This document shows positions 5,658 through 11,449 of a DNA stretch of 11,449 bases, in pieces; position 1 is the stretch's first letter, and each line of letters begins with the position of its first letter. Both the position numbers and the translations under genes were made by a program. Source of the DNA: a virus (taxonomy: Duplodnaviria > Heunggongvirae > Uroviricota > Caudoviricetes); the IMG/VR virus record IMGVR_UViG_2703718771_000002; one strand, written 5' to 3'. Below the pieces are notes generated by a model. It did no database searches and had not been told where the DNA came from. It saw only the letters and a program-made list of their open reading frames with translations.

Positions 5658-5718
5658 GAGCAATGTCGCTCGTAACTGAACAGGAGCCGACTTGTTCTGA
5701 TTATTGGAAATCTTCTTT

Positions 5719-5744
5719 GCCCTCCAGTGTGAGGGCTTTTTTAT
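5719..5744 (+). terminator. Intrinsic terminator inside the early-left operon (tL1-like, presumably overridden by N)
   Basis: Stem GCCCTC / GAGGGC, 6-nt loop, then TTTTTTAT. Confidence 0.6.
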
Positions 5745-5808
5745 ATGCATACCAATAACGCTTCACTCGAGGCGTTTTCGTTATGCAATCAAATATAAGG
5801 AGTTACCC

Positions 5809-5943
5809 ATGATGCACTTTCAGCTCGCGGGTAGCGGCGTCATGTCCGCTTTCTACCCGCACGAATCTGAATTATCACGCCAAGTTAAACAATTAATCAG
5901 AGCAGCAAAGAAACAACTGGAGGCGTTATGCGCAATGAAATAG
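5809..5943 (+). CDS. cIII: cIII-like small protein (44 aa), putative FtsH/HflB inhibitor
   Basis: ATG 5809 with SD AAGGAG 6 nt upstream. The central segment ESELSRQVKQLIRAAKKQL resembles the lambda CIII amphipathic region (ESLLERITRKLRDGWKRL) as recalled. Position matches lambda cIII. Confidence 0.5.
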   Translation: MMHFQLAGSGVMSAFYPHESELSRQVKQLIRAAKKQLEALCAMK

Positions 5944-7557: not shown

Positions 7558-8106
7558 ATGAATCACTTAATGGTTGACCTTGAAACAATGGGCAACGGGC
7601 CATACGCGCCAGTTATTTCTATTGGGGCGGTATTCTTTGACCCGAATACCGGAGAAACAGGAGAAGAGTTCTCGGTAAATATCTCGCTTGAGTCATCAAT
7701 GCGATATCGGGCGCGTCCTGACGCTTCAACGATTTTATGGTGGATGGAACAGAGTGAAGAAGCCAGAAAATCGCTAACCAGCAACACTCAAGAGCTTTCA
7801 ACGGCTCTTTCATGGTTATCTGAATTCATCATAAAGAACGCTAACCACAAATTCGTTCAGGTTTGGGGGAATGGAGCATCATTTGACTGCGTTATTCTCC
7901 GAAACAGTTATTCGCTGACAGGGCAGCCAGTTCCGTGGCAGTGGTGGAATGACCGCGACGTAAGAACAATCGTCGAACTTGGGAAGGTAATAGGATTCGA
8001 CCCTAAGCGAGATATGCCATTCAAAGGAACTCGCCACAACGCGCTTGATGATGCCATTCACCAAGCCAAATACGTTTCAGCGATCTGGAAAAAGTTAGCT
8101 AAATAA
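7558..8106 (+). CDS. DnaQ-like DEDDh 3-prime to 5-prime exonuclease
   Basis: 182 aa with Exo I-like VDLETMG, Exo II-like WGNGASFDCVIL and Exo III-like HNALDDAIHQAKY motifs. Confidence 0.65.
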   Translation: MNHLMVDLETMGNGPYAPVISIGAVFFDPNTGETGEEFSVNISLESSMRYRARPDASTILWWMEQSEEARKSLTSNTQELSTALSWLSEFIIKNANHKFVQVWGNGASFDCVILRNSYSLTGQPVPWQWWNDRDVRTIVELGKVIGFDPKRDMPFKGTRHNALDDAIHQAKYVSAIWKKLAK

Positions 8107-8881: not shown

Positions 8882-9378
8882 AACAAATGACACTAATTGA
8901 GATGGATGGTTTTCTGAAAGGTGAATGCATCCCACGAGATTTAAAGGTTAACGAAACAAACGCTGAATATCTTGTCCGTAAGTTCGGTGAACTTGAATCA
9001 AAACTAGAAACGGCGTTGCGGGAGTGTCGTTCTGCTGGAATCACGATTGATAACCTTGAGGCCAAGTGCGCGGCGCTGGTAGCGGAGAGTGCGGGGATGA
9101 AGAAGTTCTGCAAAGACGCTGCATTCGATGCCGATTACGAAGCAGAGCTAGGTATGGAGCGTGGTGGATTCAGTGATGCGCTTAACGAAATCAAAACCCC
9201 AGCCACCGATGCTTTCCTGGCTGAAGTCCGGGCTAAGGCGTTTGATGACCTTTGCGCGGCGTTCGTTAAGCACGCGTCGGTGTCCGGGCTGGACGATGGC
9301 GACTGCGTTACGGTGAAAGAGGCGACTGACGCTCTGCTGCATTGTGCGGAACAGCTTCACGAGGGAGTGCATTCATGA
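8878..9378 (+). CDS. Hypothetical protein, 166 aa, acidic
   Basis: ATG 8878 with SD GGAG about 9 nt upstream (alternative GTG at 8860). Its stop overlaps the Lar-like start (ATGA at 9375-9378). No family recognised. Confidence 0.55.
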
Positions 9379-9608
9379 GCAACCTACTACCATGTCCATT
9401 CTGTGGCGGCGCAGCGCACGTTGCCAGCGAAGCAGATCACCCTGAATATGGCTCTGGCGGTCGATTCTATTTCGTTCGATGCGGTACGTGTCGCGCTCAA
9501 TCTGGTAGCAAATATGCAGCGCCTGGAAATGACTGCGCGATTTTTTATTCAGAGGTTAGAGCAGAGTGGAATCAGCGAGCAAAGGAGGCAACCAGTGAGC
9601 GAAATTGA
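9375..9608 (+). CDS. Lar-like zinc-ribbon protein (putative restriction alleviation)
   Basis: ATG 9375 with SD GAGGGAG. Translation starts [16 protein letters not shown] with a second Cys pair at VRCGTC. The CPFCGG N-terminus is as I recall for the Lar restriction-alleviation family. Confidence 0.45.
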   Translation: MSNLLPCPFCGGAAHVASEADHPEYGSGGRFYFVRCGTCRAQSGSKYAAPGNDCAIFYSEVRAEWNQRAKEATSERN

Positions 9609-10191
9609 CTATCAGGCACTGCGTGAGGCGGCGGAACGTGCAATTCCAGCAATGGAACGCCTGTTAATGTTGCCAGTTGATGATGATTTGTTAAGTGAAC
9701 AGGAACTTAAAGATTACGGTGTGGATATTGATGCGCTCAACGCCTTCAAATTTCTGGCCGGACCAGAAACCGTGCTGGCACTACTGGATGAGATCAACGC
9801 ATTAGAGGAAACGCGTATCAACGATGTTTGCCGTATTGCGGAACTAACAAAACAACTGGAGTCGGCAAAATCAAAACTCAACGAGCAGCGTGAATATTAC
9901 GAGGGAGTAATCTCGGATGGGAGTAAGCGTATTGCAGAACTGGAAAGCAACGAAGTCCGTGAAGACGGAAATCAGTTTCTTGTTGTTCGCCACCCCGGGA
10001 AAACTCCTGTCATCAAGCACTGCACTGGTGACCTAGAAGAGTTTCTGCGGAAGTTAATCGAACAAGACCCGTTAGTAACTATCGACATCATTACGCATCG
10101 CTATTACGGGATTGGCGGTCAATGGGTTCAGGATGCAGTTGAGTATCTGCATATGATGTCTGACGCAGGCATTCGCATCAAAGGAGAGTGA
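9595..10191 (+). CDS. Ea22-like coiled-coil protein (ead/Ea22 family, function unknown)
   Basis: GTG 9595 preceded by the strong SD AAGGAGG. The track's ATG at 9403 would overlap the Lar-like gene by about 200 nt. The N-terminal YQALREAAERA motif and predicted coiled-coil resemble Ea22-like prophage proteins as recalled. Confidence 0.5.
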   Translation: MSEIDYQALREAAERAIPAMERLLMLPVDDDLLSEQELKDYGVDIDALNAFKFLAGPETVLALLDEINALEETRINDVCRIAELTKQLESAKSKLNEQREYYEGVISDGSKRIAELESNEVREDGNQFLVVRHPGKTPVIKHCTGDLEEFLRKLIEQDPLVTIDIITHRYYGIGGQWVQDAVEYLHMMSDAGIRIKGE

Positions 10192-10192
10192 T

Positions 10193-10741
10193 ATGACCAC
10201 TATAACCGATAAGAAACAGTATCCCAGCAAGCAATATCTTAATGAGCTGATCACCAACATAGAGTTTGCTGCAAGGGCACCAGTTGAAGTCGTGAGAGCG
10301 ATGGCAGCAGAGCTACAGAAGCGGCGCGAAGCTGATAGTGCAGAACCTGTAAGCCAAACTTACAAGTTGCCAGTTAATACACCTTGCCAAGATGCGCCAG
10401 CCCATATCTGGCTGCAAACGGCTGGAGTATGGCCAGAAGATGGCGAGTTAAGCGAATTAACGTGGTGCAGCCACAATCAGCACCATGATGACACGCTATA
10501 TGTTCGAGCTGACCTTGTGAATGGCAACTCTCCGGTAATTCCGGATGGTTGGATAAGCTGTAGTGAGCGAATGCCGGATAAGTTAATTCCGGTAATGGTC
10601 ATGTATGAAGACGGTGAGATGTGGTCTGCAATGTGGAATGGTAATCGCTGGGATGATGGCACCGAATATCCGGATCCGCACTCAGTTACGCACTGGCGTG
10701 AAATGCCAGCAGCACCGAAGCAGGAGGTTAACCGTGGCTAA
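10193..10741 (+). CDS. DUF551-domain phage protein
   Basis: 182 aa, ATG 10193 with SD AAGGAGAG. The C-terminal segment (WISCSERMPDK ... VTHWREMPAAPK) matches the DUF551 signature as recalled. Confidence 0.6.
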   Translation: MTTITDKKQYPSKQYLNELITNIEFAARAPVEVVRAMAAELQKRREADSAEPVSQTYKLPVNTPCQDAPAHIWLQTAGVWPEDGELSELTWCSHNQHHDDTLYVRADLVNGNSPVIPDGWISCSERMPDKLIPVMVMYEDGEMWSAMWNGNRWDDGTEYPDPHSVTHWREMPAAPKQEVNRG

Positions 10742-11018
10742 CCTGCAACTTGCCGTTAAAGGTGAATACTTCGATGCCATGATTCGCGGAGAGAAAACGG
10801 AAGAGTATCGCCTGTGTAATGACTACTGGAAAAAGCGCCTCGTTAACCGTAAGTATGACCGCCTGATTATCACAAAGGGATATCCGAAGCGCGACGACTT
10901 CAGTCGCAGAATTGATGTCCCGTATGACGGATATGAAATCAAGACAATCACACATCCCCACTTCGGCGATAAACCGGTAAAGGTATACGCGATAAAGGTG
11001 AATATCAGCAATGAATAA
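10734..11018 (+). CDS. ASCH/PUA-like domain protein (94 aa)
   Basis: GTG 10734 preceded by SD AGGAGG, overlapping the previous gene by 8 nt. N-terminal pattern AVKGEYFDAMIRGEKTEEYRL is reminiscent of ASCH domains. The track's longer ORF from 10605 is rejected. Confidence 0.45.
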   Translation: MANLQLAVKGEYFDAMIRGEKTEEYRLCNDYWKKRLVNRKYDRLIITKGYPKRDDFSRRIDVPYDGYEIKTITHPHFGDKPVKVYAIKVNISNE

Positions 11019-11022
11019 CAAT

Positions 11023-11048
11023 CCTCGCATTCGCGGGGATTTCTTTTA
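11023..11048 (+). terminator. Candidate intrinsic terminator after the ASCH-like gene
   Basis: Stem CCTCGC / GCGGGG (one G-U pair), loop ATTC, then ATTTCTTTTAT. Confidence 0.35.
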
Positions 11049-11089
11049 TCTGAACTCGCTACGGCGGGTTTTGTTTTATGGAGATGATT

Positions 11090-11389
11090 ATGGCCTGTTC
11101 AACATTCAACCCTCTAACGTTACAGAAATACCAGCCAGACCCTGAAGATTTATGCTCACTGTGTGGCGGAAATCATGGTAAAGCAGCCATGATCGAATGT
11201 AAGGACAAAATCCACATTTGCCTTAATTGCGTTGATGTCCTCGTTGATATCAAAAATGAGAGAGAAGATAAAAAGCGTAGCGAGGCTGTTCGCGCCTTAG
11301 ATTCATGGATGCGAGATGGATATAGTGCCGCGCAAATTTATGACTTAGCAATATCAAAAGGCGAAATACCAGGAGTACGCATCGAATAA
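11090..11389 (+). CDS. Cys-rich hypothetical protein (putative zinc ribbon), 99 aa
   Basis: ATG 11090 with GGAGA 5-6 nt upstream (alternative in-frame ATGs at 11078 and 11084). Cys pairs CSLCGG and CLNC. Confidence 0.5.
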   Translation: MACSTFNPLTLQKYQPDPEDLCSLCGGNHGKAAMIECKDKIHICLNCVDVLVDIKNEREDKKRSEAVRALDSWMRDGYSAAQIYDLAISKGEIPGVRIE

Positions 11390-11430
11390 GACGTAACCGA
11401 TATTCGAATTGAAGAACTGAAAGAACACCA

Positions 11431-11449
11431 AGCCGCCTGATGGCGGTTT
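11431..11449 (+). terminator. Possible terminator hairpin truncated by the window edge
   Basis: Stem AGCCGCC / GGCGGTT with loop TGAT, then TTT where the window ends. Confidence 0.25.

Follow-up and report, generated by a model that had tools for sequence, protein, structure and literature searches.

Ea22, DUF551, ASCH-like and Cys-rich genes that close the early-left operon of a lambda-like prophage

What are the four consecutive genes that lie between the restriction-alleviation gene and the excisionase gene of a lambda-like prophage, and what might their products do? We examined this question in an 11,449-nt stretch of DNA from a virus of the Caudoviricetes (IMG/VR record IMGVR_UViG_2703718771_000002), which is called the window throughout. 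All coordinates are positions in this window, and gene numbers 1 to 4 give the order from 9595 to 11389, all on the + strand. The original prediction, made from the letters alone, had described these genes as Ea22-like, DUF551, ASCH-like and Cys-rich genes that close the window as the tail of the early-left operon. From the list of open reading frames (ORFs) and their translations, together with the evidence given in brackets, the four genes are the following.

9595..10191, + strand: gene 1, ea22 orthologue, 198 aa, GTG start (Pfam, lambda BLASTP, PDB 8DSX, Shine-Dalgarno (SD) sequence AGGAGG)
10193..10741, + strand: gene 2, EaA-like gene, 182 aa, ATG start, C-terminal DUF551 (Pfam DUF551; phrog_6847/phrog_60; same coordinates in the Prokaryotic Genome Annotation Pipeline, PGAP)
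10734..11018, + strand: gene 3, small ASCH-like gene, 94 aa, GTG start (phrog_625; PGAP 'ASCH domain-containing protein' with the same start; SD AGGAGG)
11090..11389, + strand: gene 4, 99 aa, family of 933W L0063 (phrog_3680, E=2e-69; PGAP start; family alignment)

The four genes in the early-left operon

All four ORFs are genuine genes, well beyond chance ORFs. The window from 9300 to 11449 differs by one mismatch from two RefSeq E. coli chromosomes, in which PGAP annotates the same four genes under the names, in order, 'ead/Ea22-like family protein', 'DUF551 domain-containing protein', 'ASCH domain-containing protein' and 'hypothetical protein', so that three of the names are those of the original prediction. 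Strong PHROGs matches were obtained for all of them (phrog_250, 1e-54; phrog_60, 4e-30; phrog_625, 9e-50; and phrog_3680, 2e-69), and every matching family is classed there as function unknown. Upstream on the same strand lie, in order, the genes for CI, N, cIII, a Rad52-type recombinase, SSB, a 3'-5' exonuclease, Abc2, DUF5405, DUF2737, a hypothetical protein and Lar, and only 31 nt separate the end of the window from xis. In the chromosome NZ_CP027587.1, the four genes are followed by excisionase, integrase and ybhC, which is the attB-lambda locus, the site beside which the prophage sits. The predicted coordinates and the predicted operon context are thus both borne out: the prophage is lambda-like and lies beside ybhC, and the four genes form the last part of its early-left (pL) operon.

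The counterpart in lambda is the exo-xis region of the pL operon (orf60a, orf63, orf61, orf73, ea22, ea8.5 and orf55), which occupies the same place, from the recombination genes to xis. While xis is near-identical in both, the gene upstream of ea22 is orf73 in lambda and lar in the window, the DUF551 and ASCH-like genes stand in place of lambda ea8.5, and gene 4 in place of the orf55 body. From lar through gene 3, the reading frames are closely packed. The lar stop codon overlaps GTG 9595 by 14 nt, a 1-nt gap separates the ea22 stop from ATG 10193, and the end of the DUF551 gene overlaps GTG 10734 by 8 nt. Such tight packing suggests that translation is coupled from lar through ea22 and the DUF551 gene to the ASCH-like gene.

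When both strands of the interval L003 9900-12500 (from window position 9199 into xis-int) were scanned for sigma-70-like promoters, none was found, versus 3.9 +/- 2.0 in shuffled sequences, and terminator-like hairpins were enriched in the same interval (5 versus 2.0). Since no promoter was found and terminator-like hairpins are present, read-through from pL under N antitermination is the simplest reading, and the four genes would be expressed in this way early in infection or induction. It weighs against this reading that both scans report consensus matches only. Taken with the gene order, we nevertheless consider it highly probable that the four genes make up the 'exo-xis / ea' accessory segment at the far end of the pL transcript that a lambda-like prophage makes under N antitermination.

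Because the families are known, the accessory region of lambda is known and a RefSeq annotation exists, little of this is new, and the assignments are a correct annotation of mosaic DNA that was already well known. What we add is modest: a correction of the Ea22 start codon, the anatomy of the cassette in the orf55 slot, and a ClpX-like assignment for the Cys-rich protein. The base composition of the segment is unremarkable, and an Rfam search of it gave no matches.

Ea22, the DUF551 protein and the ASCH-like protein

As judged from its sequence, gene 1 is a true orthologue of lambda Ea22 with a lambda-type C-terminal domain, which the predicted label 'Ea22-like' understates. Its product consists of a short N-terminal segment, a coiled-coil region and the C-terminal domain (residues 118-198), where 77 of 81 residues (95%) are identical to the lambda Ea22 C-terminal domain in PDB 8DSX (E=1.6e-49). 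Over the whole protein, BLASTP gives 65% identity to lambda Ea22 (E=1e-88), and the Pfam family Ead_Ea22 (PF13935) is matched over profile positions 1-139 well above threshold (E=2.8e-24, 86.7 bits versus a gathering cutoff of 27). The N-terminal segment and the Ead_Ea22 coiled-coil signature are common to both proteins. Lambda Ea22 has 182 aa as opposed to 198 aa here, with an insertion of about 20 residues and a diverged coiled-coil stretch in gene 1. Ea22 variants of Shiga-toxin (Stx) phages carry other C-terminal domains (PMC10834534), whereas that of gene 1 is lambda-type.

The start codon of gene 1 deserves attention. It had been proposed that GTG 9595, GTG 10734 and ATG 11090 are the starts of genes 1, 3 and 4, differing from those of the mechanical ORF list, and in that list GTG 9403, ATG 10605 and ATG 11078 indeed appear instead. 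For gene 1, RefSeq/PGAP uses yet another codon, ATG 9514, which gives a protein of 225 aa (NZ_CP027587.1 locus C6998_RS02730, WP_425341584.1) and a 95-nt overlap with lar. Four observations bear on GTG 9595. Met1 of lambda Ea22 (MSEINSQALREAAE) pairs with the residue encoded at this codon (VSEIDYQALREAAE), the start being GTG in both lambda and the window; position 1 of the Ead_Ea22 profile falls there; DNA homology between lambda and the window at ea22 begins at the same GTG, the upstream sequence being orf73 in one and lar in the other; and SD pairing is best in front of it (AGGAGG, -11.6 kcal/mol, versus -2.8 for ATG 9514 and +1.5 for GTG 9403). As the lambda start, the profile start, the mosaic joint and the SD sequence all agree, the RefSeq start ATG 9514 of this Ea22 allele is probably 27 codons too long. 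The starts GTG 10734 and ATG 11090 are those of PGAP and coincide with position 1 of phrog_625 and phrog_3680. A strong SD sequence had been claimed for each of the three starts. This is true for 9595 and 10734 (AGGAGG, -11.0 kcal/mol, versus -3.0 for ATG 10605), while ATG 11090 has a moderate one only (GGAG, -6.4 kcal/mol, versus -5.5 and -5.2 for the alternatives).

Published experiments on lambda and Stx phages show that ea22 shifts the outcome from lysis towards lysogeny (PMC7093339). The protein forms tetramers and consists of a short N-terminal part, a coiled coil and a C-terminal domain that is dimeric (PMC10834534). Given the 95% identity of the C-terminal domains, gene 1 may likewise act as an Ea22 developmental regulator that tilts the decision towards lysogeny, probably as a coiled-coil tetramer displaying the dimeric C-terminal domain. 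Among the four genes, Ea22 alone has an experimentally supported role (in lambda and Stx phages), and the functions of the other three are inferred. The full ea22 allele, counted where 80% or more of its length is matched, is present in 8 of 5,426 complete E. coli genomes and fragments of it in 1,605, a pattern of rare whole alleles and common pieces that is typical of mosaic genes.

The assignment of gene 2 to DUF551 was confirmed by the Pfam search (PF04448; E=8.6e-18, 65.4 bits versus a gathering cutoff of 22). The domain is confined to residues 119-176, covering profile positions 1-68, and a separate PHROG accounts for the first 60 residues. Identity to L0065 of phage 933W, which is annotated as P22 EaA-like, amounts to 28% (E=1e-14). 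The C-terminal DUF551 and the genomic neighbourhood are common to gene 2, P22 EaA, 933W L0065 and Ea22_V2. In Ea22_V2, however, DUF551 is fused to the Ea22 scaffold, while here it belongs to a separate polypeptide encoded just after Ea22. DUF551 is a portable domain, being the C-terminal domain of Stx Ea22_V2 and occurring also in YfdS and in a MazZ-type dATP/dGTP pyrophosphohydrolase (PMC10834534). In the E. coli prophages H27, H28, H30 and H51, which have the same Lar/Ea22 and ASCH-like flanks, the position of gene 2 is taken by a 'dATP/dGTP pyrophosphohydrolase domain-containing protein' that shares part of the gene 2 sequence. This partial sharing hints that DUF551 may serve as an adaptor module for different effectors.

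For gene 3, the label 'ASCH-like' proved the weakest of those proposed. The phrog_625 match covers profile positions 1-93 of 98 and begins at position 1 (E=9e-50), and the protein carries the sequence GxKxxExR (G19-E-K21-T-E-E24-Y-R26). Across 60 diverse relatives, K21 never varies, and conservation of G19, E24 and R26 is 90% or higher. GxKxxExR is the ASCH-specific motif of the alpha1-beta2 cavity, and human EOLA1 has it at the same residue numbers (PMC6803910). The AlphaFold2 model of gene 3 predicts a helix at residues 10-17 and a strand at 23-27, which matches the alpha1-beta2 region of the motif. The size is also that of ASCH (YqfB, EOLA1, ZmASCH) and DUF3850 proteins, about 90-100 aa. 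Sub-threshold matches to ASCH or to DUF3850, the sole other PUA-type match, were obtained for 18 of 34 close relatives and 7 of 60 diverse ones, with best ASCH E-values of 0.002 and 0.001, respectively.

Other results limit the assignment. The match of gene 3 itself to Pfam ASCH (PF04266) misses the gathering cutoff (14.6 bits versus 21.2, E=0.054), with the N-terminal 24 residues alone in the alignment; the alignment of the gene 3 family with that of YqfB by hhalign extends over 17 columns (E=0.059), that is, the motif only; and the AlphaFold2 model is poor, with a mean predicted local distance difference test (pLDDT) score of 58.7 and no meaningful Foldseek match against the PDB. Only these 17-24 N-terminal residues align to ASCH profiles in either search. 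Profile searches of the gene 3 family against the PDB found no ASCH structure, and the Foldseek matches to DNA polymerase lambda and others were discarded, having a root-mean-square deviation (rmsd) of about 10 A on a poor model. With a sub-threshold Pfam score, a conserved motif and no support from the fold, gene 3 was graded as probably ASCH-like, not as a demonstrated member of ASCH. Should the motif form a small cavity of the PUA-superfamily/ASCH type, its product might bind nucleotides or RNA. Genes 2 and 3 are both regarded as portable modules.

Two relatives of gene 3, P0157 and P0158, have an Ea22-type or other N-terminal region that runs in frame into the ASCH-like domain via RRRRLTV. 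We do not regard them as Ea22-ASCH fusions: RRRRLTV is the SD sequence and GTG start read through, and the two proteins are probably long-ORF calls or deletion derivatives. If they were real, the ASCH-like module would be another swappable C-terminal domain of Ea22.

The company kept by genes 2 and 3 raises the question whether the segment is mainly a counter-defence island, in which the DUF551, ASCH-like and Cys-rich proteins would neutralise anti-phage systems of the host, for instance by binding modified nucleic acids or nucleotide signals, rather than regulate development. The neighbouring genes encode Lar, for restriction alleviation, and the anti-RecBCD protein Abc2. Moreover, dATP/dGTP pyrophosphohydrolase-domain proteins fill the gene 2 slot in other E. 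coli prophages and DUF551 occurs in a MazZ-type enzyme (PMC10834534), ASCH falls within the PUA superfamily with its nucleotide-binding cavities, and the high mosaicism is that of accessory genes under arms-race selection. Against this, the defence-system models of PADLOC gave no matches over the segment, the families go unmentioned in two large accessory-gene screens of Silas et al., and the phenotype measured for Ea22 is developmental, not anti-defence (PMC7093339). We therefore regard a counter-defence island as a doubtful alternative.

The Cys-rich protein and the orf55 slot

The Cys-rich gene that had been predicted last in the series exists at 11090-11389, and a putative zinc finger resembling the zinc-binding domain (ZBD) of ClpX was found in its product. 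The protein is composed of this N-terminal C-x2-C-x18-C-x2-C finger, a long helix and a conserved tail, IYDxIxxGxIPxIRI(D/E). Its family comprises 36 clusters at 90% identity and is confined to prophages of Enterobacteriaceae. In 22 family sequences C22, C25, C44 and C47 are invariant, as is H42, and the C-terminal tail is conserved. In the Stx phage 933W, gene 4 is L0063, and other Stx phages have it at about 96% identity.

The spacing of the Cys residues is that of E. coli ClpX. Gene 4 and the ClpX ZBD (PF06689; PDB 2DS5-2DS8, 1OVX) have the motifs CS[LF]CG and ICxxCVD in common, the latter as ICxECVDL in most members of the gene 4 family, and are 32% identical over 37 residues. When the family was compared by hhalign with a ClpX ZBD alignment built from 40 distinct gammaproteobacterial sequences, a probability of 93.4% was obtained over 37 columns (pairwise E=2.4e-7). 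Among ZBD sequences shuffled with the four Cys fixed, 2 of 10,000 reached the real score against the hidden Markov model of the gene 4 family, and 24 of 10,000 did so in the reverse test. Since so few shuffles score as well, the similarity exceeds the Cys scaffold alone. The NCBIfam ClpX equivalogs match gene 4 with E=0.002 and 17 bits versus cutoffs of about 360, as expected of a match to one domain only. Searches of the PDB gave E=0.05 with phmmer and E=0.024 with the family profile, ClpX being the sole PDB family matched. The AlphaFold2 model (pLDDT 77) shows zinc knuckles followed by a long helix.

Several results limit this assignment. The ClpX resemblance stays under the curated cutoff in every single-library search, the Pfam ClpX C4 zinc domain (PF06689) reaching 15.7 bits versus 27 (E=0.014). 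The model superimposes on 2ds7 with a target-normalised template-modelling (TM) score of 0.75 and an rmsd of 2.2 A over 38 columns, but the Foldseek E-value of this match is 1.2, non-significant and among generic treble-clef fingers. A fold search of BFVD gave generic zinc ribbons only. Gene 4 also differs from ClpX in that it stands alone, has no AAA+ module and possesses a different helical C-terminal half. The ClpX-ZBD assignment is offered as a hypothesis, not as an established result.

Lambda O, MuA, SspB, RssB and trigger factor all dock on the ZBD of ClpX, around residues F16 and I46 (PMC7804408). The gene 4 residues aligned with this patch, L24 and I54, are hydrophobic. Gene 4 is predicted to bind zinc via a ClpX-type C4 finger and might, at low confidence, act via the partners of the ClpX N-domain. 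The partners would be the phage's own lambda-O-type replication protein (823-1644) or the adaptors SspB, RssB and trigger factor. In its full form, the idea is that gene 4, made early from pL, would imitate the N-terminal ZBD of ClpX as a free-standing protein, compete for or pair with ZBD-docking partners and so retune ClpXP proteolysis in the lysis-lysogeny decision of lambdoid and Shiga-toxin phages; we hold this to be conceivable but, as it stands, unlikely. It is a first testable idea for a conserved 'hypothetical protein' of 933W-type Shiga-toxin phages, of which 310 of 5,426 complete E. coli genomes have an intact copy with at least 95% identity. Should the protein engage the ClpX N-domain network, an uncharacterised exo-xis gene would be linked to O-protein stability and to the control of phage development.

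A different role has to be weighed on the same evidence, namely that gene 4 is a small nucleic-acid-binding zinc-finger factor that aids or regulates Xis/Int recombination and owes its ClpX likeness to the shared treble-clef scaffold. In each of three genera, its homologues are without exception one or two genes away from xis-int on the upstream side, also in Enterobacter and Klebsiella prophages, despite different integrases and attachment sites. Foldseek returns RING, PHD and LIM treble-clef fingers at similar scores, and helix and a conserved tail make up the C-terminal half. On the other hand, hhalign gives 0.2% for gene 4 against the neighbouring Xis proteins, Pfam detects no helix-turn-helix (HTH) family in it, and the similarity to the ClpX ZBD goes beyond the Cys scaffold in both shuffling tests. 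In addition, the same slot in lambda holds the unrelated orf55, so that the position of gene 4 may just be a cassette-exchange hotspot. A recombination factor is thus improbable in our estimation.

Some other identities were considered for gene 4 and rejected. Lambda Ea8.5, a homeodomain/zinc-finger hybrid, is also a small Cys-containing protein encoded near xis, and its comparison with gene 4 gave a BLASTP E-value of 0.29, with no Ea8.5-family chain in the PDB matching at E<=10. Phi24B gp05 was ruled out as it is a winged-HTH/PVQ-repeat/coiled-coil protein (PMC8614690). The C-terminal tail was tried as an Xis/HTH_17-like helix plus wing (hhalign 0.2%), and the whole as a homologue of lambda Orf55 (hhalign probability 2%, over 16 C-terminal columns).

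The surroundings of gene 4 comprise the following elements.

11020..11041, + strand: terminator-like hairpin 1 in the spacer between genes 3 and 4 (-13.1 kcal/mol, z=-5.5, followed by a U-run)
11052..11071, + strand: terminator-like hairpin 2, in tandem with hairpin 1 (-11.0 kcal/mol, z=-3.4, followed by a U-run; conserved in lambda)
11080-11083, + strand: SD sequence GGAG of gene 4
11390..11440, + strand: orf55 relic, the last 16 codons and stop (DVTDIRIEELKEHQAA*), in frame directly after the gene 4 TAA
11430..11449, + strand: terminator-like hairpin 3, GCCGCC-TGAT-GGCGG (-15.4 kcal/mol, z=-3.5; identical in lambda)

The spacer between genes 3 and 4 measures 71 nt, and none of 200 shuffles folds as well as its two hairpins. 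With both hairpins and the SD sequence, the stretch 11015-11089 is nearly identical to the spacer between ea8.5 and orf55 of lambda. As this conserved lambda-type spacer ends exactly at ATG 11090, at the position of the lambda orf55 ATG, the start of gene 4 is supported independently. Identity to lambda resumes at the first base past the gene 4 TAA. The TGA of the orf55 relic falls in the loop of hairpin 3 before xis, and the U-run of this hairpin lies just beyond the window end, upstream of xis. For 933W, too, 'a portion of orf55' has been reported in the vicinity of xis (PMC8614690). The conserved flanks and the orf55 tail indicate that gene 4 replaces the body of orf55. It sits in exactly the orf55 slot without significant sequence similarity to Orf55 or Ea8.5, and forms a separate cassette with two tandem hairpins and an SD sequence upstream and a third hairpin downstream. 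The slot just before xis is thereby recognisable as a site of cassette exchange with conserved flanks, the two hairpins and SD on the left, the orf55 tail and hairpin on the right. The C-terminus of gene 4 (...IPGVRIE) weakly resembles that of orf55 (...NIRIE), a likeness that may reflect microhomology used for the joint.

Chimeric relatives of gene 4 were also found. P0155 combines an unrelated N-terminal half with the C-terminal 35 residues of gene 4, and P0126 keeps the zinc finger and has a different C-terminus, so that gene 4 behaves like two modules, one for each half, that can be separated.

In a region so full of recombination joints, with an evident 3' relic of orf55, certain ORFs, with gene 4 and the ASCH-like gene as the foremost candidates, might themselves be decaying relics of mosaic recombination that no longer function, and truncated or chimeric variants of gene 4 are indeed present in databases (P0126, P0129-P0131, P0155). 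The distribution of intact copies argues otherwise. The gene 3 family comprises 1,247 representatives at 50% clustering in an exhaustive profile search, with a near-invariant motif, and gene 3 is intact in 1,465 of the 5,426 complete E. coli genomes. Gene 4 is intact in the 310 genomes mentioned above, and its Enterobacter and Klebsiella orthologues, which are about 50-60% identical, keep the four Cys, His42 and the C-terminal tail. Each of the two genes is also preceded by a good SD sequence. Decay of either gene is, therefore, very unlikely indeed.

Neighbouring genes and minor observations

The other features of the window that were used above for orientation are these.

823-1644, strand opposite to the four genes: O-type replication gene
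2547-3248, + strand: CI repressor
4928-5272, + strand: N
5704-5943, + strand: cIII
9375..9608, + strand: lar, Lar-family restriction-alleviation gene (Pfam Lar_restr_allev, E=1.9e-9; PGAP; SD -8.0 kcal/mol at ATG 9375)

Facing the ASCH-like gene, an antisense ORF of 100 aa occupies 10728-11030 on the - strand. It has no annotation, no family match and no support from an SD sequence, and most likely arose by chance.

Two differences from NZ_CP027587.1 were observed further upstream. The Rv2179c-like 3'-5' exonuclease gene (7558-8106) is intact in the window, while its copy in that chromosome is split by an IS3-family insertion. Although the two are almost the same further downstream, the window is therefore not derived from that assembly in its deposited form. 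Between the genes for the CI repressor and N, the window has an ORF of 173 aa (3750-4271, + strand) without Pfam match, whereas the same interval of NZ_CP027587.1 holds DUF3024, a hypothetical gene and a Ser/Thr kinase. Therefore, the cargo of the immunity region varies between otherwise related prophages.

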